32,728 nt of DNA from a virus, in UHGV virus genome UHGV-2172388, one strand, 5' to 3'. Position 1 is the stretch's first letter; each line of letters opens with the position of its first letter. The notes under the pieces are model-generated. The model saw only the letters and a program-made list of their open reading frames with translations. It did no database searches and was not told the origin of the DNA. The position numbers were made by a program, and so were the translations under genes. This document shows positions 1,100 through 31,528 of this stretch, one piece after another.

Positions 1100-1118
1100 G
1101 GCGTGGCGGGGTCACAAC
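1100..1118. other. cos: Candidate cos (cohesive end) site, GGCGTGGCGGGGTCACAAC
   Basis: Resembles the P2/186 19-nt cohesive end (GGCGAGGCGGGGAAAGCAC as I recall it) and lies just outside the portal gene where P2 has cos. Similarity judged from memory only. Confidence 0.3.
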
Positions 1119-1233: not shown

Positions 1234-2214
1234 TTACTCTGAATCGTCGTCGGCAAGGCGGTACTTTTTGAAGCGAATAACCTCCAGCCCCAACCAGTCG
1301 TTCAGTTCCTTAAAGCGTTCCTGCAGCGGCTCGATCTCATTGCAGTTGAATACCTTCGCCGCTTTGATGGCATCACCAAAGCCACCGGCGTTACTCGGTA
1401 CCACGCCCATGAGCGCGGGCGGTACCCGGTGCGCGGCTAACTGGTCGTCACGGCTGACGCTTTTAATATCGGAGAAGTTATCTTTCGCCGCCACCTCGCC
1501 AATCGGGATCACCTTTACGCTGTCCGGTTTGCCGTTCGGCAGATACATCAGCAGATTGCGGAAGTTGCCGGGGCCACGGCTATTCGCCAGCGCCTCCTGT
1601 AACGCCCCAATATCCGCCTCGTTATGGGCTGGGTCGCTCAGGTAGAGGATGAAACCGGCATGACTGCCGTTCTTGTAGTAGCGACGGCGAAACAGCGTGG
1701 CGGAGTTATCCAGCCATGCCGCGTTCAGCGCAGAGAGGTATTCAGGCAGGCCGTAGATTTCCTGATTGATATCCGGCTCCAGTAGGTGGCCGATACTGCC
1801 CGACGCAAACTCATGATCCACTTTACCGGGCTGAACAAAGAAATAGCTGTCCAGCGCCTTGCCGCGCCGGACATACTTCGCCAGCGCAGGCACCAGCGTT
1901 AACGGCTGGCCCAGCCGGTTATCCTGCCGCTCCAGATAGGCATTGCCGAACACCAGATAGTCCAGCGCAAGGCGGCTGAACGCCTGCCGGGTCAACAACG
2001 TATGAGGTATGAAGGTACCAACCAGCACATTGCGCTTCACGCAGATCGGGCTGGTATGATGTGCCGAAGCGCGGAACGACAGCGCCAGCGAATTAAAATC
2101 CACCGGCGGCGCATACCATTTGCCAAAGTCTACGCACTCCAGATAGTTCAGTATTTCCCGCCTGTCCAGCAGAGCTTCGGGTTCACCGAAGGTGAAAGCC
2201 ATTGTGTTATTCAT
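1234..2214 (-). CDS. Q: Portal protein (P2 gpQ-like)
   Basis: 326-aa ORF; position and orientation as in P2; start ATG overlaps the P stop as ATGA; sequence recalled as P2 Q family. Confidence 0.85.
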   Translation of the reverse strand: MNNTMAFTFGEPEALLDRREILNYLECVDFGKWYAPPVDFNSLALSFRASAHHTSPICVKRNVLVGTFIPHTLLTRQAFSRLALDYLVFGNAYLERQDNRLGQPLTLVPALAKYVRRGKALDSYFFVQPGKVDHEFASGSIGHLLEPDINQEIYGLPEYLSALNAAWLDNSATLFRRRYYKNGSHAGFILYLSDPAHNEADIGALQEALANSRGPGNFRNLLMYLPNGKPDSVKVIPIGEVAAKDNFSDIKSVSRDDQLAAHRVPPALMGVVPSNAGGFGDAIKAAKVFNCNEIEPLQERFKELNDWLGLEVIRFKKYRLADDDSE

Positions 2215-3994
2215 CCGTACACCTTAATTAAGCCCCGCCCGCTGTTCGCGCCGCCGGAGCTTTCCAGTGGTTCATTGATAATGGCGTGCATACACGCCCA
2301 TGCCAGATCCGCGTGGGAGACTTCTTCCGAACGGCTGGCCTCGAAGGTTACCTGACGCCCGGACGGAGTCAGGGTTTTGCGGATCGCCATAAATGCCTGC
2401 GCCAGATCCGTCCATCCGGCGTCAAACTCCAGTCGGCGTTTACGGACAACGTCCAGCGTTTTCAGCACCAGACGCTGTTTCACTTCTGGGGAATAAGAGA
2501 ATGCCTGCACTGCCGGGAAGAACTGTTTCACCAGTTGATGCACGCCGTGGCCGATGCCGGTCACGTCAATACCGATGTAAGTCACGTTATAGCGCTCGGT
2601 AATTTTGCGGATATTTTCCGCCTGCGCCGCGAAGTCCATCCCGTGCCACTGGTGCTTTTCAATTACCCGAAACTTGCCGCCCTCAATGACCGGCGGCGCG
2701 ACCACCACGCATCCGGCGCTGTCGCCGCTTAACGCCGGATCGTAGCCCACCCATACCGAGCGTTCGCCGAGCGGACGCAGGGCAAACGGCTTGTAGTCGT
2801 CCCAGACTTCCCAGCTATCGACCATGCAACCCTGCAACATGCTGAGCGGGAATACCGATGCGGTATCGTCAATAAACTGGCACATAAACAGGTTGGCGAA
2901 CTCTTCCGGCGAGTTCTCCAGCCTGAGTTGCTCAAGGTCGAACAGGTCATAACCCTGATTGATGGCATCCTCAACGGTGACGATTTGCCGCCACTGGCCG
3001 TCTTCACACAACCGCCCTGCCGACAGCGCCCGATGGCTGATATCCAGTCGAATCTGTTCGCTCTTCGGCCTGCCCTTGTTGAACAGTTGCCCTGTCCAGA
3101 ACTTATAGGCTTCATGGGTGATGCTGGACGGCGTGGAGAAGTAGGTTTGCCGCCAGCGCTTCTGGCTGGCCATCCCCGCCGCGTTACGGCGCAGTTCCAG
3201 AAAGCGGTGTATCCAGAAGTATTCATCCAGATACAGGTTGCCATGATAGGTCTGGGCGGTGCGGGCATTAGTGCCGAGAAAATACATCCGGCTATCATTA
3301 TGCGGCAGGTGAATGACTTCGCCTTTCAGCTCAACATCCGCCTCACGAGCAAAATCGACAATGTACTGGCGGACTGGTGCGCCTGCGCTTTGGAAGCAGA
3401 GAGAAAGATCTGGTTGCGCCCACTTTCCACCGCATCCATAAACCCTTCCCGCCCGAAGAACATCGTCGCCCCAATCTGGCGCGACTTGTTGATATCGCGG
3501 ATACGGTGTTCCAGTCCGGCGCGGTACCAGTGTTTCTGGTGCGGATACAGCCCGTCCAGAAATAGCTGTTTCAGCTTCTCCGCCTGCTCCTCGCTGATAT
3601 GGTTGGTTTCCGGCTGTCTGCGCGGCCCGGCGTTACGCTTCGCAAGAGCAGGATTCAGGTCGACCTCATTGCCTCCCTGCTGATAGCGTTCAACCCTTGC
3701 CCCGCGCTCCATCTGCCGCCAGAGCAGGTCGATCTCCTTAAAATCCTTCCCCTCTTTATTTTCCTTCACCGTGAGCTGGATCAGACGCGCCTCGGTCACC
3801 GCCGTCACCCGCTCCAGCGGGGCGGATTCATCCCAGCCGTCGCGCCGCTTCCAGCTATGCAGCGTGGTAACTTTCACCCCCAACAGTTCGGCGATCCGCG
3901 CGATGCGAAAACCCTGCCAGTACAGATAGCGGGCTTTGCGGCGTGGATCTTCATCCTGAAGGGCAAGCAGATGTTTTTCGATGTCTGGCGGCAT
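2211..3994 (-). CDS. P: Terminase large (ATPase) subunit, P2 gpP-like, interrupted by an apparent frameshift near 3376-3392 (possible pseudogene or sequencing error)
   Basis: Two ORFs in different frames (3326..3994, 222 aa N-terminal part; 2211..3287, 358 aa nuclease part). The downstream frame stays open upstream to about 3500 and reads ...[17 protein letters not shown]... Together about 590 aa, the size of gpP. Confidence 0.8.
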
Positions 3995-4987: not shown

Positions 4988-6007
4988 ATGCGTAACGAAA
5001 CCCGCTTAAAATACAACGCTTACGTTGAAACCGTCGCCGGGCTGTCCGGTGTCCAGAGCGCCGCCGTCGAATTCACGGTAGAACCTTCCGTACAGCAGAC
5101 GCTGGAAACCAAAATTCAGGCGTCCGTAGAATTCCTGACCAAAATCAACGTCCATGAAGTGGTGGATCAGGAAGGAGAAAAAGTCGGCATCGGCATTGAT
5201 CGCCCCACGGCCAGCCGCACCGATACCAGCCAGCGTGAGCGTGAACCCGTCGACCCCACGTCGATGACGACTAACCGCTACCGCTGCGAAAAAACCAACT
5301 ACGACACCGCGCTGAAATACGCCAAACTGGACGCATGGGCCGCCCACCCGGATTTTCAGATCCGCGTGCGCGACAGCATCACCCGGCGACAGGGATTAGA
5401 CCGCATCCTGATTGGCTTCAACGGTATCCTCGTTGCAGCCCAGACCGACTTCCAGCGTTACCCCCTTCTGCAGGACGTTAACAAAGGCTGGCTGCAGCAG
5501 TATCGCGACCACGCCCCGGAACGCGTCATGAACGAAGGTGTGGAAGGTTCCGGCAAAATCATCATTGGCAAAGGCGGCGACTATGAGAATCTGGACGTCA
5601 TGGTCAATGACGGCGAAGAAAACCTGATTGACGAATGGCATGTCGACGGCGCAGATCTGGTCGCCATTTGTGGCCGTGGCGTCCTGCACGACAAATACTT
5701 CCCGATACTCAACCAGCACAATGAGAACAGCGAAAAACTGGCGGGGCAGATTCTGGTCAGCCAGAAAACCATCGGCGGTCGCCCTGCCGTGCGCGTGCCG
5801 GGTTTCCCGCGCAACACCATTCTGGTCACCGCCTTCAGTAACCTGTCTATCTATGTCCAGAAAGGCACTCGCCGCCGCGCCATTATTGATAACCCCAAAC
5901 GTGACCGGGTAAAGAACTTCGAGTCCTCCAACGATGCCTTTGTGGTGGAAGACTTCGGCTGCGGTTGCCTGTTTGAGAATATCAAGTTTGAGGATAAAGA
6001 CGTATGA
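4988..6007 (+). CDS. N: Major capsid protein (P2 gpN-like)
   Basis: 339-aa ORF; N-terminus MRNETRLKYNAYVE and later motifs (GKGGDY, NLSIY) match recalled P2 gpN; RBS AAGGA upstream. Confidence 0.9.
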   Translation: MRNETRLKYNAYVETVAGLSGVQSAAVEFTVEPSVQQTLETKIQASVEFLTKINVHEVVDQEGEKVGIGIDRPTASRTDTSQREREPVDPTSMTTNRYRCEKTNYDTALKYAKLDAWAAHPDFQIRVRDSITRRQGLDRILIGFNGILVAAQTDFQRYPLLQDVNKGWLQQYRDHAPERVMNEGVEGSGKIIIGKGGDYENLDVMVNDGEENLIDEWHVDGADLVAICGRGVLHDKYFPILNQHNENSEKLAGQILVSQKTIGGRPAVRVPGFPRNTILVTAFSNLSIYVQKGTRRRAIIDNPKRDRVKNFESSNDAFVVEDFGCGCLFENIKFEDKDV

Positions 6008-6666
6008 TGACGCCTGCCCGCCGCCACCTGCTGCGCCATCAGGCGCAGGCCGCAAATCAACAGGAAAACCAGACCTACGCCAACGGCTATGAACTAATGC
6101 TGGCAAAGCTGGCAACCGATAAACGCCGCTTGAAAGCGATCCAGTCCATTGAACGCAAAATCGAGGTTAAGGGTGAACTGCTGCCCGATTACCAGCCGTG
6201 GGTAAGCGGCGTTCTGGCTGCCGACAGCCAACAGCAGGACGATGTGTTTATGACGGTGCTGCTCTGGACGCTGGATACCGGCGACTTTCCCGCTGCCTAC
6301 CCCATGGCGGAACACGCCCTGAAACACGGCTGGGTAACGCCGGATCAGTACCAGCGGCAGACCGCCTGCATGGTGGCTGAAGAAGTCGCCGACACCGCCC
6401 TGAAACAGCTTACCGCCGGTACCTTTGCGGCGCTGGACAGCCTGCTGGCCTTTGCCGGGCTGTTAGCCGATCAGGACATGCCGGATCAGGTTCGCGCTCG
6501 CCTGCACAAGGCATTGGGGCTGGCACAAAGCGAAAGCCAGCCGCAGGAGGCGCTGGCGCAGTTCCTGCGCGCACTACAACTGGATGAGAACGTCGGCGTG
6601 AAAAAGCTGATTGAGCAACTGGAGCGGCAAATTCGCAATAACCCGCCCGACCAGTCCACAGAGTGA
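6004..6666 (+). CDS. M: Terminase small (endonuclease) subunit (P2 gpM-like)
   Basis: 220-aa ORF overlapping the N stop; synteny. Confidence 0.8.
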   Translation: MMTPARRHLLRHQAQAANQQENQTYANGYELMLAKLATDKRRLKAIQSIERKIEVKGELLPDYQPWVSGVLAADSQQQDDVFMTVLLWTLDTGDFPAAYPMAEHALKHGWVTPDQYQRQTACMVAEEVADTALKQLTAGTFAALDSLLAFAGLLADQDMPDQVRARLHKALGLAQSESQPQEALAQFLRALQLDENVGVKKLIEQLERQIRNNPPDQSTE

Positions 6667-13233: not shown

Positions 13234-13583
13234 TGTACCTCGGTATGAACGCCGAAACCGGCAGAGCATTAAGCGATGAGTTGCACATTAAGCAATCCGT
13301 AAAAGACATTCTGACCACACCAGTAGGTACGCGCGTGATGCGCCGCGATTATGGCTCACTGGTCGGCAACCTGATCGACCAGCCCAACGATGGCGCTACC
13401 CGGCTACGGGTGATGTCGGCGGTGGTCATGGCGCTGACGCGCTGGGAACCTCGCATCGAGATTATCGGCGTGGACTTTGCTGCGGATAATGCCGATCTCA
13501 GCGTCACCATTGAAGCCGAACGTACCGATATCCCCGGCCAGCCGTGGACATTCTCCATTCCGATCGACAGGAGACGTTCATGA
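13233..13583 (+). CDS. W: Baseplate protein (P2 gpW-like, GPW/gp25 family)
   Basis: 116 aa; 1-nt overlap with the V stop; synteny. Confidence 0.85.
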   Translation: MYLGMNAETGRALSDELHIKQSVKDILTTPVGTRVMRRDYGSLVGNLIDQPNDGATRLRVMSAVVMALTRWEPRIEIIGVDFAADNADLSVTIEAERTDIPGQPWTFSIPIDRRRS

Positions 13584-15098: not shown

Positions 15099-16606
15099 GC
15101 GCTACCTATTTCACGCTATTAACCACTACCGGCGAATCCGCGCTGGCGACCGCCACCGCACAGGGTTCGCCTCTTCATCTGACGCAAATGGCCGTTGGTG
15201 ACGGAAATGGTAACCTGCCAACGCCGGATACCGGCCAAACCCGGTTAGTCAACGAACGCCGACGTGCGCCGCTGAATACGCTCAGTATTGACCCTAACAA
15301 CCCCAACCAGATTATTGCCGAACAGGTATTGCCGGAGGACGTAGGCGGATGGTGGATCAGGGAAATTGGCCTGTACGACGAGCACGACCGGCTGATTGCC
15401 GTCGGCAACTGCCCGCCAACCTACAAGCCGCAGTTAATCGAAGGTTCGGGCCGCACACAGATTATCCGCATGGTGCTGATTGTCTCCCATACGGAAAACG
15501 TGGAACTGAAAATCGACCCTGCCGTGGTGCTGGCAACAAGACAGTATGTGGATGAAGGCCTATCCCGCCACGCGCAGTCCCGTAACCATCCTGACGCCAC
15601 CTTAACCGCCAAAGGATTTGCCCAATTAAGCAGCGCGACCAACAGCATCAGCGAAACACTGGCCGCCACGCCCAAAGCGATGAAAGCAGCCTACGATCTG
15701 GCTAATGGAAAATATACCGAACAGGATGCCACCACAGCGCGCAAAGGGGTTGTCCAGCTTAGCAGCGAAACCAACAGCACCAGCGAAACGCTCGCCGCCA
15801 CGCCCAAAGCGGTGAAAGCGGCCTACGATCTGGCTAATGGAAAATATACCGAGCAGGATGCCACCACGACGCGCAAAGGGGTTGCCCAGCTTAGTAGCGC
15901 CATCGACAGCACCAGCGAAACGCTGGCCGCCACGCCTAAAGCGGTAAAAGCGGCAGTAGACAAAGCGCTGGCGGCGGAAACCTGTCCGGTCGGCGCGCCG
16001 ATACCGTGGTCATCCGATGCCATCCCCAGCGGCTACGCCCTGATGGTCGGTCAGTCCTTCAATAAAACCTCCTACCCTAAGCTGGCAATCGCTTACCCCT
16101 CCGGTGTAATCCCGGATATGCGCGGCTGGACAATCAAGGGGAAACCCGCCAGCGGACGCACGATACTGTCTCAGGAGCAGGATGGCATTAAATCGCATGG
16201 TCACACCGCCAGCGCCACTAACACGGATTTAGGTACTAAAACCGCCAGTTCCACCGATTTGGGTACCAAAAATACCAGCGCGTTTGACTACGGGACAAAA
16301 TCGACCAATACCACCGGCGCGCACAACCACCAAATTCCGACTGACGGCATAAAAACAGGGAAGAATATGGCGTCAGTGGTGGGTTCTGATAATAGCGATG
16401 AAGATTTCAGGGACGTGACAAGTACCAATGGCAACCACGCCCACACCGTTGCTATCGGCGCACATACCCATTCGCTGGCTATCGGCGCACATAACCACAC
16501 CGTCGTCTTAGGTTCCCACAGCCACACTATTACGGTGAATGCCGCCGGGAACGCCGAAAACACCGTTAAAAATATCGCTTTCAACTATATCGTGAGGCTG
16601 GCATGA
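15095..16606 (+). CDS. H: Tail fiber protein (P2 gpH-like) with internal tandem repeats and His-rich C-terminal domain
   Basis: 503 aa; conserved N-terminus; three ~44-aa repeats; C-terminal HxH-rich tract ([29 protein letters not shown]). Confidence 0.9.
15611..15955 (+). repeat. Coding tandem repeat, 132-nt unit, 2.6 copies, inside tail fiber gene H
   Basis: Units start at 15611, 15743, 15875; protein repeat ...KG(V/F)[37 protein letters not shown]. Confidence 0.85.
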
Positions 16607-20344: not shown

Positions 20345-20641
20345 ATGAACGAACGTAAAACCGTGACCCTGAATACTCCCCTGAAACGCGGCGAAACCGA
20401 ATTTGTCGAGTTCCAGATCCGTAAACCGCTGGGCGGCGACCTGCGCGGTGTCAGTCTGGTGGAGCTGCTGAGCCTCAACGTCGACGCACTGACCACCGTT
20501 CTGCCCCGCATCACCGCACCGGCGCTGAATAAGCATGAGGTGGCGCAACTGGATTTTATCGACCTGACGGCCTTCGGTACGGCGCTTGTCGGTTTTTTGC
20601 CGCAGACCTCGCCGGAAGCAGCGGATACCCCGGACGCATAG
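20345..20641 (+). CDS. E: Tail assembly chaperone E (P2 gpE-like)
   Basis: 98 aa; MNERKTVTLNTPLKRGE... similar to recalled gpE. Confidence 0.8.
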   Translation: MNERKTVTLNTPLKRGETEFVEFQIRKPLGGDLRGVSLVELLSLNVDALTTVLPRITAPALNKHEVAQLDFIDLTAFGTALVGFLPQTSPEAADTPDA

Positions 20642-24051: not shown

Positions 24052-25154
24052 CGATGTTAAACGCACTCTTAAACGCCCAGCCGCAGCCGGAGTACAGCGT
24101 GGTGCTGAACGGTAAGGACATTACGCGGAATCTGGACAACCGCTTAATCAGCCTGCGTATCACCGACAACCGGGGCTTTGAGGCCGACGAACTGCAGCTC
24201 GAACTGGACGACAGCGACGGCCTGCTGGCGTTTCCGGCAAAGGGCGAAAAAATAACGGTTTCTCTGGGCTGGAAGGGTGACGGCGTGATGCACCAGAATG
24301 TCTTCACCGTGGACGAACTGGAGCACAGCGGCGCACCGGACGTACTCAGTCTCCGCGCCCGCAGCGCCGATTTCCGCGATTCGCTGAACGTTAAACGGGA
24401 ACAGAGCTACCATGATGTGACGCTGGGCGCGATTGTGCAAACCGTGGCGGCACGTCATAAGCTGGAATCAACCGTCAGCGGCGAGCTGGCTGGGATCGCC
24501 ATTGAGCACGTTGACCAGACTAACGAGTCTGATGCGTCCTTCCTAACCCGGCTGGCGCAAATGCACGGCGCTATCGCCTGCGTGAAAAATGATGCTCTGC
24601 TGCTGATGCCGACAGGTTCCGGTAAAAGCGCCAGCGGCAAGCCGCTGCCGGTCGCAACCATTAACCGCGAGGACGGCGACAGCCACCGGTTCAGCATCGC
24701 GGACAGGGAAGCCTATACCGGCGTAACGGCCTACTGGCTGGATACGCGGCAGGCTAAAAAGCAGTCAACTGACGTGAAGCGCAAGACACGGAAAAATCTT
24801 CCGCAAACGCAACCAACAGAATCGCCGACGTCAGACACCTCATTCAACGCCGATAACGTGATGGTCGGCGAAGAGGGAAATATCAAGGTGCTGCGCCACA
24901 CCTATGCCAACAAAAATAACGCCTACAGAGCGGCAAAAAGCGCGTGGGAGCTATTACAGCGAGGCGCGGCAACGTTCAGCCTGAATCTTGCGCGCGGACG
25001 GCCCGATTTGTTCCCGGAACTGTCGGTGCAGGTGAAGGGGTTTAAGGCGGAGATTGACGGCACCGCGTGGGTGATTACGCGGTGCGTGCATACGTTGGAT
25101 AACAGCAGTGGGTATGGGACGGCGGTGGAGTGTGAGTTGGGGCTGGAAGATTAA
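24048..25154 (+). CDS. D: Tail protein / late control protein D (P2 gpD-like)
   Basis: 368 aa; ATGA overlap with U; synteny. Confidence 0.85.
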   Translation: MTMLNALLNAQPQPEYSVVLNGKDITRNLDNRLISLRITDNRGFEADELQLELDDSDGLLAFPAKGEKITVSLGWKGDGVMHQNVFTVDELEHSGAPDVLSLRARSADFRDSLNVKREQSYHDVTLGAIVQTVAARHKLESTVSGELAGIAIEHVDQTNESDASFLTRLAQMHGAIACVKNDALLLMPTGSGKSASGKPLPVATINREDGDSHRFSIADREAYTGVTAYWLDTRQAKKQSTDVKRKTRKNLPQTQPTESPTSDTSFNADNVMVGEEGNIKVLRHTYANKNNAYRAAKSAWELLQRGAATFSLNLARGRPDLFPELSVQVKGFKAEIDGTAWVITRCVHTLDNSSGYGTAVECELGLED

Positions 25155-26152
25155 TATCCAATACCGCTACTTACACCAACATCACTTAAAATCATTCTCA
25201 ATTCGTTCAAATATCCAGGTAACGGCCATTCTTGCTGTAATTTATTACTGTCTTCATTTATTGCCAGCCAGTAAGTAAAAATGACCACTGGCTGCGCAAA
25301 AAAAAGATTGGCAGTAGCCCTTTGTTGGATTTTATATGATATATATTTTTTCTTATCAAGAAGGTCGATTAGATTAGTCAAAAGATCTTCTTGTATAAAC
25401 GACCTATACTCATCTAAAAAACAATAATTTATTTTATCTTCCTGATTTAAATACTGTCTCCCAATTTTATTTATATAAAAATCTTTTAACTCCTTTAAAA
25501 AATCATTTCTTGGTTTATTAGTATCACATAAAAGCCGCATTGTATTACAAAATAATTCATCTGTTGTTTCCATCAAAGCCATACTACGCGCAATTTGGCG
25601 CTCCGCTTTTTTCGGTACTGGGCCAACAGGTTTATAAACGCTATCATGAACTAATTCTGCATACGCATGCTGCAATAATGTTCTAATTTGTACTTCACAG
25701 CACATATCAGTTGTAATATTAACTCCCGATATAACGCTATTTATCTTTGGCCTTATTTCAAAATGCTTTGATTGATAATCAAATAGTTTAGGGTTTACCT
25801 CTATTTCATCCTGATAATCTTTAGAAACAACAGCTATCCATTGTTCATTATTCTGAATGATTTTACAGATTGTCTCAATATCTTCAGAAAGTAAAACGAC
25901 AAAACGAACGCCAACGAGATCCGTCATCTGCTGAACAGGGTTGTTATAACCTTTACGACCAACCTTCCCTAATGCGGACTCGATACCTTTAACTCTCGGA
26001 GTGGGTGGTACCTTGATGAAGAGCTGGGCGGCCCCTTCACCAAGTTGTTCAATCAAAGCCGCATTGATTTCAGACGCAATATGTTTACCCCATGCTTCAT
26101 AAGCAGCATGGTTTTCAACCAGATAACGTCTAAAATCCTCTATACTCATCAT
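25151..26152 (-). CDS. RelA/SpoT-family nucleotidyltransferase (small alarmone synthetase / toxSAS-like) with about 140-aa C-terminal extension of unknown fold
   Basis: 333 aa in AT-rich DNA; synthetase-domain motifs RVKGIESALGKVGRKG, DLVGVRFVV, CEVQIRTLLQHAYAELVHDSVYK; ATGA overlap with the upstream gene. Confidence 0.7.
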   Translation of the reverse strand: MMSIEDFRRYLVENHAAYEAWGKHIASEINAALIEQLGEGAAQLFIKVPPTPRVKGIESALGKVGRKGYNNPVQQMTDLVGVRFVVLLSEDIETICKIIQNNEQWIAVVSKDYQDEIEVNPKLFDYQSKHFEIRPKINSVISGVNITTDMCCEVQIRTLLQHAYAELVHDSVYKPVGPVPKKAERQIARSMALMETTDELFCNTMRLLCDTNKPRNDFLKELKDFYINKIGRQYLNQEDKINYCFLDEYRSFIQEDLLTNLIDLLDKKKYISYKIQQRATANLFFAQPVVIFTYWLAINEDSNKLQQEWPLPGYLNELRMILSDVGVSSGIGY

Positions 26153-27237
26153 TCTTGACTTTTCAACCGCCCTTTGACTTTAAGTGTAGTTGACTCATCA
26201 TCATCTGTTTGTTCAATCTGTACCAGTTCTTTTACTTGATCTGGTGGTATGGATATCCATACATCGCTTGTAAACACTAATTTACTTCTACGACGAAGCT
26301 TTTTCTTAATATAATCAGTATCTTTAGACACTGCATTCTGCGGAAAACCTTTTTGAGCCATAAATGACTGATAGCTCGTCTGTAATTCTTGAGGAAGATG
26401 TTCCGTAGCAAACGAAGCGGTACTCAAAGTTGCTTTCTGACTTCTCAGTTCAGAACGTAATGACTCGTGTAAATCAAACTTAGTTTCTTCATCAACTGGA
26501 GCCTGATTAATGAAATTTCGAGTATGTTCAAAAAAATCCTGCGTCAATTTCTTGGAGGATTTTTCGATCCCCATTCCAAGAAAAACACTGTAAAAATACC
26601 CCGCAGCATTTTTAGTTTCCGTCGATGTCATCAAGTGATCAAATAAAAATGAACGATAATATTGCGTATCACAACGACCATCAATCAATTCATGGCCTGA
26701 CTCACACTCAATCAACACTCCTATTTTATAAAGCCGCTGAGTTGGTGTAAGTAATAAGTCAGCAATATACTCCATCGCTATTTTCTCTGGGGTATCATTG
26801 GTCCGAAATCCGTTTTGCATTTCAGCACGCAGTACAGCAAAGAATGGGCAGGCTTGTTCACCAATTTTTCCCGTAATGATTACTAACACACCACCGGAAA
26901 CCTTCCCCGCACTATATTGAGCTTCTGTTAACTTATGCGCCAATCGCTTAGATACGTTAATAAATGATTCGCCTTCAACATGTAGTACAGACGTTGTCAG
27001 TGCAAAAAAACTATCATCACCGGTATCAGTGATAGACATTTCAATGCCATGAGATTTATTACCTAAGGCTTCTGTTATACGAACCTGTAGTGCATCCAAA
27101 GCATCTTGTTCTAACGTTATTAACTGATTACTTAACTTAGGTGGAACCATTTGCTTATCGGGAGACCTTGGGAAGATTCGATGAGCAATAATTCTTTCAA
27201 TCATCACCCCCTCAAAAGAAAAGCCGACATTTGCCAT
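26149..27237 (-). CDS. NdpA/YejK-like (NA37 nucleoid-associated protein family) hypothetical protein
   Basis: 362 aa in AT-rich DNA; by-eye resemblance to E. coli YejK in several blocks (IERIIAHRI vs INQIALHQL; GG-hydrophobic block); assignment from memory. Confidence 0.45.
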   Translation of the reverse strand: MANVGFSFEGVMIERIIAHRIFPRSPDKQMVPPKLSNQLITLEQDALDALQVRITEALGNKSHGIEMSITDTGDDSFFALTTSVLHVEGESFINVSKRLAHKLTEAQYSAGKVSGGVLVIITGKIGEQACPFFAVLRAEMQNGFRTNDTPEKIAMEYIADLLLTPTQRLYKIGVLIECESGHELIDGRCDTQYYRSFLFDHLMTSTETKNAAGYFYSVFLGMGIEKSSKKLTQDFFEHTRNFINQAPVDEETKFDLHESLRSELRSQKATLSTASFATEHLPQELQTSYQSFMAQKGFPQNAVSKDTDYIKKKLRRRSKLVFTSDVWISIPPDQVKELVQIEQTDDDESTTLKVKGRLKSQE

Positions 27238-27268: not shown

Positions 27269-27604
27269 TCATTGTACTTTTCGACAATTCATCGGTTGCG
27301 CAAGCGCAGCGCTAACCGTGTCAAGGGTGGACTGGTGTTCTGGCGTAGCAGAACGATAGTTTTCCACCAACACACTCTCTTTATTGGACAACGTAACCAC
27401 AGGCGTGCGGTTGCCTGTTAGAACATACAGAACATCAACTCCCGCTGCCGCTATGCCAGCAAGATAGTCACTGTCCGGCTTGCGCAACCCATTCTCATAG
27501 TTGCTTTGTGCGTTTTTCTTCACGCCCCCAAGTTGTCCAAAGCCGTCTTGATCAAGTCCAAGTCGGATACGTTCTTCCTTCAAACGGATGCCAAATTCTT
27601 TCAT
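27269..27604 (-). CDS. XRE-family helix-turn-helix repressor (candidate prophage immunity repressor)
   Basis: 111 aa; HTH_3 pattern IRLKEERIRLGLDQ...YENGLRKP...LAGIAAAGVDVLYVLTG; leftward from the switch region; GC content like the phage backbone. Confidence 0.65.
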   Translation of the reverse strand: MKEFGIRLKEERIRLGLDQDGFGQLGGVKKNAQSNYENGLRKPDSDYLAGIAAAGVDVLYVLTGNRTPVVTLSNKESVLVENYRSATPEHQSTLDTVSAALAQPMNCRKVQ

Positions 27605-27732
27605 TTGGATATAATTACCATTGACAATTCACTCAATTGAGGGAATTATAGATTGTGTAATGTTAATAACCACAATATACCACCATGAAAACAAATGAGA
27701 ACGTCTTACGCTCAAGAGCGCCTCGCGGGGTG
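27605..27732. promoter_or_regulatory. Divergent switch/intergenic region: rightward TTGACA (27621-27626), leftward perfect TATAAT (complement of 27645-27650), 10-bp palindrome CTCAATTGAG (27632-27641)
   Basis: Direct reading of the sequence between the divergent repressor and RHH genes. Confidence 0.4.
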
Positions 27733-27891
27733 ATGTCGAACAAACCGGTGGCAATGCGCCTGCTCCCCGCTGAAATCGCGGAACTGGAAGCATTAGCGCT
27801 GGATCAGAACCGTTCGATGTCCAGCATGGCAAGAATCATTTTTTTGAACGGCATCACACTATTTCGTCAGTCCGTTAACGAAAAGCGTTAG
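27733..27891 (+). CDS. Small ribbon-helix-helix (CopG/Arc-type) DNA-binding protein, candidate Cro/Cox-like early regulator
   Basis: 52 aa from ATG 27733 (MSNKPVAMRLLPAEIAELEALALDQNRSMSSMARIIFLNGI...); divergent from the repressor. Confidence 0.4.
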   Translation: MSNKPVAMRLLPAEIAELEALALDQNRSMSSMARIIFLNGITLFRQSVNEKR

Positions 27892-27909
27892 TGTTTCAGT
27901 TAGTTAAAA

Positions 27910-28158
27910 GTGGTAAGGAGACAGGACATGATGAAATGCCCACACTGCGACGGTAAGGCGATAATTCGCAGCAGCGAATATATGTCACCGCTGGTACGTA
28001 AGCTCTATTACCAGTGCAAAAACGTTAACTGTTCGTTTTCATTTATCGCAATGGAAACCGTGATGGGAACGGTGGTACCGAGCGGTTGCCCGAATCCTAA
28101 GATACACATACCACTATCCACACGCGGGCAATTTCTGCAAAAACAGAAAATCGCGTAA
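27910..28158 (+). CDS. ogr: Ogr/Delta-family zinc-finger late transcription activator
   Basis: CPHCDGKA...YYQCKNVNCSFSF matches the Ogr Cys4 pattern (P2 Ogr CPLC...YHQCQNVNCSATF as recalled). Confidence 0.8.
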   Translation: MVRRQDMMKCPHCDGKAIIRSSEYMSPLVRKLYYQCKNVNCSFSFIAMETVMGTVVPSGCPNPKIHIPLSTRGQFLQKQKIA

Positions 28159-28246
28159 CGCTCAGTAAATAAAAGACTCACAACCACAACGCATAAACAA
28201 CGTGTCTATGCGACGGGTAAGTATTACCTGAATAAAGGTACTGGCA

Positions 28247-30901
28247 ATGCAACCACAACTTCATCAGGAAATTACGCGGCGACTACTGGCCGACTTTTCC
28301 TTTAAAGAACAGGGCGACTGGCTGCGGCAGGGCATCTGCCCGGACTGCCAGAAAAAAGAGCTGTACACCAATGCCATCAGCCCGTGGGTATTGCGCTGCG
28401 GTCGCCTGAATAAATGCAATGCCGAAATCCACATCAAAGATATGTACCCGGATCTGTTTGAAAGCTGGTCAGACAGATATCCCCCAACCCCGGAAAACCC
28501 ACAGGCCGCCGCCGATGCCTACCTGCGCGAGATGCGCGGCTTTGACCTTTCGCTGATCCGTGACTGTTACACTCAAGAGAACTACTACGACCCACGGCGT
28601 GATATCGGTTCAGCGACGGTACGTTTCCCGCTGGCTGACGGCGTGTGGTGGGAGCGGATCGTTGACCGCCCACAGCGTTTCGGCGATCGCAAAGCCAACT
28701 TTCACGGCGCTTACAGCGGGCTATGGTGGCTATTGCCAACGCTGAAGCTGGAAGAACAGCAGGAGATCTGGCTGGTTGAGGGCATTTTTGACGCTATCGC
28801 CCTGCACCACCACGGCATTGCCGCCGTTTCCCTGATGACCTGTAACAACTATCCGGCGCAGGCGTTAAGCCAACTGGCCGCGCTGTTCGTGGATAAAAAG
28901 CGCCCTTTACTGGTCTGGGCGCTGGATAACGACAAGGCGGGCATGAGCTATACCCGGCGATGGGTAAAGCGCAGCCGGGACGAAGGCTGGAGCGCAGCCG
29001 CCGCACAGACGCCGCATTCCCGCAGCAAGCTGGACTGGAACGATTTGCACCAACGCGACCGGCTTAACCCAGAGCTAGTGAAGAAATACCGCTACTACGG
29101 CTCTCTGCTGATCGCCACCTCTCCCGCCGCCAAAGCCCTGCTGATGCACGAACAGACAGAGCGTAAAGAGTTCCACTTCGAGTTTGACAGCCGCCTGTTC
29201 TGGTTCAAGCTGGATATTGACCGCTATATGCGGGTGCATGAAAGTATCTCATTCTCCAATGACGACCTGAGCGAAGAAGAGCTGAAACAGAAGGCGCTGA
29301 AAGAGTCGTCCGCCGTGGTGGAGATCGCCAACTGCTACCCGACCGCCCTCTACTATCAGGCCAACACCATCACCGACGAAAGCTGGTATTACTTTCGCAT
29401 TAACTTCCCGGACGACACGCCGCCGATAAAAAACACCTTCACCGGCTCCCAACTTTCCAGCGGCTCAGAATTCAAAAAGCGCCTGCTGCATATCGCGCAG
29501 GGCGGCATCTTCACCGGCACCAGTCAGCAGTTAGATAAGTTGCTGCTCAAGCAGCTTCCCAAAATCAAAACTGTCCAGACCACTGATTTTATCGGCTACA
29601 GCAAAGAATACCGCGCTTACGTGTTCAACGATCTGGCCGTTCGCGATGGTCGGCTGTACACACTCAACGAAGAAGACTTCTTCGACATGGGCAAACTCAG
29701 CCTTAAAAGCCTGAACCAGTCGGTCAGCCTGACGCTGAACGACAATTTAAAACAGATGGACAGCCAGTGGCCCCAGCTACTCTGGCAGGCGTTTGGCGCA
29801 AAGGGCTTTGTGGCGCTGGCGTTCTGGCTTGGGACGATGTTTGCCGAACAGATCCGCGACAAGCACAAGAGCTTTCCGTTTCTGGAAATCGTTGGCGAAC
29901 CCGGCAGCGGCAAAACCACGCTGATAGAGTTTCTCTGGAAGCTGTTAGGCCGACGCGACTATGAAGGTTTCGATCCGTCTAAATCAACGCTGGCCGCCCG
30001 CGCGCGCAACTTTGCGCAGGTGGCGAACATGCCGGTGGTGCTGATCGAGGGTGACCGTAATCAGGAGGGTGCAAAGCAACGCGGCTTTGATTGGGAAGAG
30101 CTAAAAACCGCCTATAACGGGCGGTCAGTGCGGTCTCGCGGTCTGCGTAACAGCGGTAACGAGACCTATGAACCTCCGTTCCGGGGCTCGATTGTGATTG
30201 CGCAAAACGCCGACGTTAGCGCCTCTAACCCGGTGCTGGAACGTATTATTCACCTGTACACCGACCGCAGCGGCCAGAATACTCAGACCAAGGTCGCTGC
30301 CGAGCAGCTCGAACGCCTGCCGGTGGAACAGCTTTCCGGCTTTATGCTGAAAGCAGCGCTGGCGGAACAGGCCGTGCTGGAGTGCGTCAACCGGCAGATC
30401 CCGCTATACGAGCAGCAGCTTCACGCCCACCCCGATATTCGCCATATCCGCATCATTAAAAACCACGCCCAGCTTATGGCGCTGCTCGACGCGCTGGCGC
30501 TGGTTATTCCGGTCACGAAGGAGCAGCTACAGGCAACCAGAGAAATGTTTATCCGCCTCAGTCTGGAGCGCCAGCAGGCCATCAGCGCCGACCACCCTCT
30601 GGTGCAGGAGTTCTGGGATATTTTCGACTTCCTCGATGGCGACGACGAACCACAGCTCAACCACTCGCGCGATGAACAGCTTATCGCCGTCAACCTTAAC
30701 CACTTTATTCAACTGGCCACCGAACGTCGCCAGCAGATCCCACCAGTCAGCGATTTAAAGCGGGTACTGAAAACCAGCCGTACCCACAAGTTTATTGAAG
30801 TCAGAACGGTTAACAGCGGCATCAACGCTGAATTTAACCGCCGTTACCCAGCCGCATCGCGCCACCCGGCGACGGTGAAGTGTTGGGTTTTTCAACGATA
30901 A
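28247..30901 (+). CDS. Replication primase-helicase (N-terminal zinc ribbon, TOPRIM domain, C-terminal P-loop NTPase), P4 alpha-like
   Basis: 884 aa; CPDCQ...C..LNKC zinc ribbon; TOPRIM-like LVEGIFDAIALHHHG; Walker A GEPGSGKTT. Confidence 0.75.
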   Translation: MQPQLHQEITRRLLADFSFKEQGDWLRQGICPDCQKKELYTNAISPWVLRCGRLNKCNAEIHIKDMYPDLFESWSDRYPPTPENPQAAADAYLREMRGFDLSLIRDCYTQENYYDPRRDIGSATVRFPLADGVWWERIVDRPQRFGDRKANFHGAYSGLWWLLPTLKLEEQQEIWLVEGIFDAIALHHHGIAAVSLMTCNNYPAQALSQLAALFVDKKRPLLVWALDNDKAGMSYTRRWVKRSRDEGWSAAAAQTPHSRSKLDWNDLHQRDRLNPELVKKYRYYGSLLIATSPAAKALLMHEQTERKEFHFEFDSRLFWFKLDIDRYMRVHESISFSNDDLSEEELKQKALKESSAVVEIANCYPTALYYQANTITDESWYYFRINFPDDTPPIKNTFTGSQLSSGSEFKKRLLHIAQGGIFTGTSQQLDKLLLKQLPKIKTVQTTDFIGYSKEYRAYVFNDLAVRDGRLYTLNEEDFFDMGKLSLKSLNQSVSLTLNDNLKQMDSQWPQLLWQAFGAKGFVALAFWLGTMFAEQIRDKHKSFPFLEIVGEPGSGKTTLIEFLWKLLGRRDYEGFDPSKSTLAARARNFAQVANMPVVLIEGDRNQEGAKQRGFDWEELKTAYNGRSVRSRGLRNSGNETYEPPFRGSIVIAQNADVSASNPVLERIIHLYTDRSGQNTQTKVAAEQLERLPVEQLSGFMLKAALAEQAVLECVNRQIPLYEQQLHAHPDIRHIRIIKNHAQLMALLDALALVIPVTKEQLQATREMFIRLSLERQQAISADHPLVQEFWDIFDFLDGDDEPQLNHSRDEQLIAVNLNHFIQLATERRQQIPPVSDLKRVLKTSRTHKFIEVRTVNSGINAEFNRRYPAASRHPATVKCWVFQR

Positions 30902-30910
30902 GGAAATGTT

Positions 30911-31288
30911 ATGAACGAAATATTTAAGGCTCTGGCAACGCAAGAAACCCAACGACAAAGACTTTGCGTAACGCCAGAGGAATACCGCCTTGCTGTCAAT
31001 ACCCTTGTCGACGTTGCTCTCACAGAAACCACCGGCGGACGCGCGGCTGCGCAGGTACTGCTTTCTGCATGGAATGGCTACGTGTGGCAACTGGATATTC
31101 CCGACCTCTGTTATCTGGACTATGACCTGCTGGAACAGGCGCTGATCGTTATCCGGGGGCGGATAATGTTGATGAAAGAGCCGCAGGAGGTGATCCCGGA
31201 GGGGAATGCGGTGATGAAGCGGATTGCAGCGCAGTGGCAACACCTGAACGCCGAACGGCATGGGGAAAACAATGAAAATTGCCATTAG
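30911..31288 (+). CDS. Hypothetical protein (125 aa) downstream of the primase
   Basis: ORF with GGA RBS context, co-oriented with the primase; no family recognised. Confidence 0.4.
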   Translation: MNEIFKALATQETQRQRLCVTPEEYRLAVNTLVDVALTETTGGRAAAQVLLSAWNGYVWQLDIPDLCYLDYDLLEQALIVIRGRIMLMKEPQEVIPEGNAVMKRIAAQWQHLNAERHGENNENCH

Positions 31289-31528
31289 AAAAAACGTGCT
31301 TTTACAGATGGTGCCACTCTCTGAAAGTACGATTTATGCGTTGGAGCAAAAAGGCCTGTTTCCCAACGTTTTGCGCTAACGAAGCGCGCCGTCGCGTGGG
31401 ACAAAGAGGAAGTGGAACGCTGGCTCAAGACTCGGCAGGAAAATAACCATCACCATATTGACAGTGCGGTACAGAAGAATCTGGCCAAAGCACCAAAGCG
31501 CTCTGGTACCAAGATCCCCGCATAGTAC
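31272..31528 (+). pseudogene. alpA: AlpA-like (MerR-type excisionase/regulator) gene apparently disrupted by a frameshift
   Basis: Frame 1 gives MKIAIRKNVLLQMVPLSESTIYALEQKGLFPNVLR then stop; frame 2 continues ...LTKRAVAWDKEEVERWLKTRQENNHHH...; halves match the AlpA pattern (..STIYrl...G.FP....lg.RaVaW...ev..Wl). Confidence 0.35.

Follow-up and report, generated by a model that had tools for sequence, protein, structure and literature searches.

Layout of the terminase locus and its prophage

The window considered here, the whole 32,728-nucleotide stretch that was analysed (UHGV virus genome UHGV-2172388), carries on its minus strand, at 2211..3994 (1784 nt), what we interpret as a pseudogene of a large terminase subunit of the phage P2 gpP type, 99.9% identical to its counterpart in the E. 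coli genome GMF054. The 5' fragment, ORF A (3326..3994, minus strand; 222 aa), begins at an ATG and contains authentic codons 1-207, followed by 15 out-of-frame codons and a stop; the 3' part (2211..3372, minus strand), corresponding to codons 208-594, lies in the -1 frame and encodes a Walker B-like motif and an RNaseH-like nuclease domain. Relative to ORF A, this -1 frame is open from 3632 to its stop at 2211, and overlaps ORF A by 307 nt. The earlier note on this DNA, made from the sequence alone, had placed the lower end of the frame correctly at 2211, but its opening at about 3500 rather than 3632. The first possible start codon of the downstream frame is the ATG at 3287, from which an ORF of 358 aa begins.

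Pfam domains are distributed over both frames. The HTH domain Terminase_5 (PF06056) occupies residues 16-73 of the 222-aa fragment (E = 2e-23), and the C-terminal, RNaseH-like nuclease domain Terminase_6C (PF17289) is found in the 358-aa ORF (E = 2e-42), out of frame with the gene start. The ATPase domain Terminase_6N (PF03237) is itself divided, with profile positions 2-42 in ORF A and 80-214 in the 358-aa ORF, the frame break falling within the domain at position 42 of 215. A Walker A-like motif, KSRQIGAT (residues 170-177), consequently lies in ORF A and a Walker B-like motif, LYLDEYFW (254-261), in the other frame; a complete PF03237 domain combining Walker A and Walker B in one polypeptide, as found in the relatives, is absent here. 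Because one Terminase_6N domain is shared between both frames, the two ORFs represent halves of a single gene rather than a chance pair, and its division argues that the window sequence is a pseudogene of the gpP family and not a functional member. The ORF coordinates, together with the domains spanning both ORFs, thus bear out the earlier view of a large terminase subunit divided over two frames; its assignment to the gpP type agrees with the annotation of intact relatives, the Pfam domains and a protein search.

The gene belongs to a prophage of the P2 family (Peduoviridae-like), which occupies the 3' end of guaA in E. coli. A 14-bp att core, GAGTGGGAATGATT, made up of the final guaA codons and TT, recurs at the integrase end of the element and beyond two GmrSD/DUF262 genes (426 and 650 aa), which therefore lie inside the att repeats as prophage cargo. 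The second core (positions 2265-2278 of sequence L013 and 16711-16724 of L015) is located about 3.4 kb beyond the window start, so that the window is without the last part of the element. What is found is an integrated genome with att repeats and an inactivated essential gene, the hallmarks of a defective prophage. The head-gene synteny of P2 is kept: an intact gpQ-type portal gene (1234..2214, minus strand; 326 aa) lies downstream, its start overlapping the terminase stop (ATGA), and the scaffold, major capsid, small terminase and head-completion genes (O-N-M-L) are arranged divergently on the plus strand, among them an intact gpM-type small terminase subunit (6004..6666, plus strand; 220 aa). 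Just downstream of the portal gene is a candidate cos sequence, GGCGTGGCGGGGTCACAAC (1100..1118, plus strand), the presumed terminase substrate, which we take to resemble the 19-nt cohesive ends of P2 and 186.

Elsewhere the element is well preserved. Among 41 GMF054 genes mapped on the window, 31 encode identical proteins, eight are affected by substitutions or by an exchanged cargo segment alone, and two are interrupted, namely the terminase and an AlpA-like gene; the window shows no large deletions or IS insertions. The suggestion in the earlier note that the prophage retains its cargo genes is upheld by these counts and by the open frames of a cargo pair at 25151-27237 (minus strand), between gpD and a repressor-like HTH gene. 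One member is a RelA/SpoT-domain protein of 333 aa (Pfam 1.7e-18; PADLOC candidate PDC-S33, 1e-13), the other an NA37 nucleoid-associated protein of 362 aa. The locus is occupied by other genes in GMF054 and is bordered on either side by clustered SNPs (24995-25058 and 27384-28621), so that it looks like a defence hotspot exchanged by recombination.

A separate feature of the window is an AT-rich non-coding region at 630-915 containing at least eight copies of GGTTACCTTT in both orientations. When up to one mismatch is allowed, 12 matches occur window-wide, eight of them in 630-915, against an expectation of 2.6; none of 100 shuffles reached 12. This iteron-like cluster is possibly an origin for the P4-alpha-like primase encoded at 28247-30901.

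A one-base deletion at codon 208

Megablast comparison with 5,426 complete E. coli genomes yielded four close relatives of the window, GMF054 at 99.9% identity and L725, CEC15 and 24A16CRGN010 at about 97%. All four carry the terminase as a single gene of 1785 nt and 594 aa, annotated as 'terminase ATPase subunit family protein', close to the length of about 590 aa that had been anticipated for an intact gene. Aligning the locus with intact orthologues, which the earlier note had proposed as a way to find the indel, located a single gap at 3373/3374 (minus strand), in codon Phe208, and this gap is the sole difference from GMF054 within the terminase gene. One T of the TT doublet in CAG-TTC is missing, converting CAGTTCCGC to CAGTCCGC on the coding strand and GGAAC to GGAC on the plus strand; which base of the doublet was lost is indistinguishable. 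The extra base is present in each of the five relatives with sequence at this site (GMF054, L725, CEC15, 24A16CRGN010 and the IMG/VR sequence L012), and putting one T back restores the GMF054 protein WP_089558893.1, residue for residue. The last authentic residue is Q207 (...SKAQAHQ207), followed by the 15 out-of-frame residues. The switch of frame had been placed after ...SKAQAH, near 3376-3392, which was nearly right: the actual site lies 3 nt outside that interval, and the last residue in frame is Q207 rather than H206.

Recurrence of the deletion in independent assemblies

A single missing base invites the question of whether it is real, and the earlier note had left the choice between a sequencing or assembly indel and a genuine inactivating mutation. 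The exact 222-aa product was found on 42 contigs (68 index blocks) from NCBI, JGI/IMG, Logan and ENA, and the exact 358-aa product on 25 contigs (42 index blocks), the split gene being carried by at least six separately named samples. Where longer stretches were compared with the window, the deletion occurred within DNA that was identical over 6669/6669 and 8494/8494 nt in SRR18104980, 4757/4757 nt in ERZ27316940, and 5856/5856 nt in ERZ27281408, and that matched at 13286/13287 nt in SRR31283631; in SRR30896179 the sole difference was one further 1-bp deletion. The nearest intact alleles are rarer in these collections, an allele with one substitution occurring on three contigs and one with six substitutions on ten, as against 42. 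A scan of IMG/VR, a collection unsuited to allele counts, found the deletion junction on no contig and the intact junction on one.

An error, with TT as the true sequence and the gene intact, might be suspected from the fact that the window differs from GMF054 here by a single base in a short homopolymer, and that its second deletion relative to the relatives also sits in a short run. However, a run of two bases is not an error-prone context, a third indel that separates the two sequences proves to be an oddity of GMF054 rather than of the window (below), and the same deletion, flanked by 100% identical DNA, has emerged from different projects and assemblers. We consider an error scarcely credible. 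The artefact reading is rejected because the same change within identical surrounding DNA recurs in so many independent assemblies; of the two alternatives offered earlier, it is the genuine mutation that is supported. The terminase deletion is a real, inherited allele of an often-sampled lineage.

A second frameshift beside the integrase

Over the 30.5 kb of the window aligned with GMF054, three 1-bp indels were found. Polarised with L725 and 24A16CRGN010, the terminase deletion and one at 31366 are specific to the window, and a T6/T7 difference at 20598 is peculiar to GMF054. The number of such indels had raised the separate notion that the window derives from an error-prone assembly; this was rejected on polarising with L725, CEC15 and 24A16CRGN010, two of the three being deletions of the window lineage.

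The deletion at 31366 affects the AlpA-like gene (PF05930) beside the integrase (31272..31525, plus strand), in which AAA becomes AA at 31365-31366, reducing a product of 84 aa to 35 aa. The exact truncated product, looked up as a 39-aa sequence, was absent from the protein collection, and confirmation was therefore sought through contigs carrying the exact integrase. Of 24 such contigs read, 22 belong to the place type without a called AlpA-like gene, and NCBI GCA_026383875.1, which represents that type, agrees with the window at 3700/3700 positions. The AlpA-like deletion is likewise real and lineage-specific, and is reproduced in independent assemblies; the two deletions were seen together on one sequence in the window only. 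AlpA-family proteins are excision regulators or directionality factors for P4-type integrases, and by analogy with this role excision is probably impaired by the frameshift.

The third indel concerns a site of known recoding. The T6G slippery heptamer (T TTT TTG) of the gpE/E' tail chaperone, at 20593-20599, is normal in the window and in the other relatives. GMF054 (L005, about 15684-15691) has T7G at this site, and PGAP calls a fused 140-aa GpE-family CDS there; either an error in the homopolymer or a genuine fusion accounts for this.

Other lesions and host backgrounds

Additional variants of the terminase gene were encountered in other samples. In ERR4013394 (L019) the Phe208 codon is intact, and a different 1-bp deletion, GG to G at positions 3996-3997 of L019 (equivalent to window 2999), leads to a 421-aa product. 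The extra 1-bp deletion in SRR30896179 (L011), on top of that at codon 208, lies at the equivalent of window 2258, and two single Logan contigs encode terminase products truncated near residues 94 and 108. These further lesions, each from one run, may be independent inactivations or assembly errors, and we give them little weight. About a dozen draft assemblies at NCBI (L018, GCA_023868805.1, and cluster members P0002-P0008) contain a 97.8% variant of the prophage, and in them a contig of about 132 kb stops inside the terminase gene, within codons 280-317; the assemblies may be broken there by a repeat or an inserted element.

Of interest with respect to host background is the metagenome contig L017 (ERZ27281408), whose prophage, with the frameshift, matches the window at 100% over the 5856 nt compared, and whose host flank differs from that of L015 by 65 mismatches in 4.3 kb (about 1.5%), beginning 55 bp after attR. 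The divergent flank could reflect a chimeric contig, recombination in the flank or a second host background. If L017 is neither a chimera nor a product of flank recombination, the element would have entered a second host background.

Prospects for function of the divided gene

The 307-nt overlap of the two frames (3632..3326) raises the possibility of programmed recoding, since a -1 shift anywhere within it would yield a near-full-length protein, or of a functional split, in which two polypeptides assemble into an active terminase. The phage family uses recoding elsewhere, as attested by the true T6G slippery site at gpE/E' in the same window, and the frameshifted allele is sampled more than the nearest intact alleles (42 contigs vs 10 and 3). 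Rescue by recoding would need its -1 shift within 3632..3326; searched there in the upstream frame, no slippery heptamer of the form X XXY YYZ was found, nor any homopolymer of five or more in the 307 nt. Independent translation of the downstream part is no better provided for: its frame contains no ATG, GTG or TTG before 3287, the ATG at 3287 is 29 codons past the break, and TGCCGCATAATGATAGCCGG, directly before that ATG, contains no clear Shine-Dalgarno sequence. The break, moreover, separates Walker A from Walker B within a single ATPase fold. Nor did any relative show a two-frame arrangement of the terminase, the four complete E. coli genomes each having a single 594-aa ORF and IMG/VR L012 the undeleted base. 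With no heptamer, no near start and no two-frame relative, programmed recoding or a functional split appears very unlikely, to the point that we would be surprised by either.

Very low spontaneous -1 frameshifting in the overlap could nevertheless produce traces of full-length protein. Judged by its domain architecture and the established role of gpP-type terminases, the deletion allele very probably supports neither cos cleavage nor DNA packaging. Continued transmission of the frameshifted prophage, by rare -1 slippage in the overlap or with the terminase of a co-resident helper, would explain both the identical frameshifted copy beside the divergent flank of L017 and the frequent sampling of the allele; we hold such transmission to be highly improbable.

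Prophage decay and its meaning

With high likelihood, the locus is a true pseudogene of the terminase, and the prophage that carries it was inactivated ('grounded') recently and is still early in its decay; packaging failure is the presumed consequence. Loss of a T from the doublet in codon 208 ends translation after 207 authentic and 15 out-of-frame residues; what remains of the ATPase domain (Walker B and the coupling motif), together with the entire nuclease domain, is left in the -1 frame and has no nearby start. Cos cutting and DNA packaging would be expected to fail for want of a full-length terminase, and infectious particles would not be formed; excision, too, is probably impaired by the second frameshift, that of the AlpA-like gene next to the integrase. 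That the other genes remain uninterrupted, and differ little from their counterparts in an intact relative, argues that inactivation was recent and decay has only begun. Prophage decay, of which this is an ordinary case, begins in textbook fashion when a morphogenesis gene of the integrated phage acquires a point lesion.

Whether selection had any part in it is a further question. Both window-specific indels in 32.7 kb strike mobility functions, while the 39 other mapped genes are open and most are identical; lysis genes would be dangerous to a host to which the cargo (two GmrSD-type genes, the RelA/SpoT-domain protein and a Doc/Fic toxin) may be useful; and the doubly hit lineage is the form most often sampled. 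Possible independent lesions in the terminase gene elsewhere (the 421-aa product of L019 and the extra deletion of L011) point the same way, and selection for loss of mobility would fit the idea of rapid prophage inactivation followed by retention, reportedly advanced by Bobay, Touchon and Rocha in 2014. However, only two events are involved, and at a coding density of about 90% any indel would strike a gene; the sampling frequency may reflect one successful host clone, and the lesions seen once each may be errors in the assembly of single-run Logan contigs. Selection for the terminase and AlpA-like frameshifts, as opposed to neutral decay, is on balance a doubtful proposition, entertained here tentatively.

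For annotation, the genuine-pseudogene reading means that the locus should be described as a terminase pseudogene in a defective prophage, neither as two genes nor as an assembly error. The prophage looks complete to prediction tools, yet very probably packages no DNA and probably excises poorly. Together with the intact and almost identical prophage of GMF054, the frameshifted lineage makes a natural pair, the two differing in the terminase and AlpA-like lesions and, in addition, in a recombined cargo and immunity segment. Such a pair would suit experiments on whether the 'grounding' of a prophage with defence cargo benefits its host; beyond correct annotation, the finding otherwise matters little.

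Comparison with known systems

The intact form of the protein resembles gpP of phage P2 in its Terminase_5 HTH, Terminase_6N ATPase and Terminase_6C nuclease domains and in its length (594 aa here), and the surroundings resemble those of P2 in having the portal gene directly downstream on the same strand and a divergent operon for scaffold, major capsid, small terminase and head completion. In P2, mutants in gene P form heads that are not filled with DNA; those mutants are laboratory ambers, whereas the lesion here is a natural frameshift. The early region also departs from that of P2 and is P4-like, with a P4-type integrase, the AlpA-like gene and an 884-aa toprim primase. Among isolated Peduoviridae the terminase reaches only about 64% amino-acid identity to any, a protein search placing Klebsiella phage ST15-OXA48phi14.1, Escherichia phage Cartapus, Salmonella phage SEN8 and phiCTX at this level. 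Megablast of the window against isolated phages gave no match, so that the family was assigned by protein search; a PDB sequence search with the intact terminase was similarly without a match, and the break was therefore mapped by Pfam domains and motifs rather than by structure. A literature search for P2-like prophages with a frameshifted terminase returned nothing relevant.

The -1 frameshift that joins gpE and E' in P2 provides a parallel for one product encoded over two overlapping frames in a P2-family genome. It differs in possessing a slippery heptamer and in being conserved among relatives, neither of which applies to the terminase split. A further likeness is offered by the defective or cryptic prophages of E. 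coli, such as the cryptic prophages of K-12 and the defective P2-related prophage of E. coli B: in these, as here, point lesions in essential genes for morphogenesis or mobility have disabled an integrated phage genome, which is inherited vertically with the host. The present element differs from them in the very early stage at which it is encountered, with two 1-bp deletions alone and 31 of 41 mapped proteins still identical to those of its intact relative.
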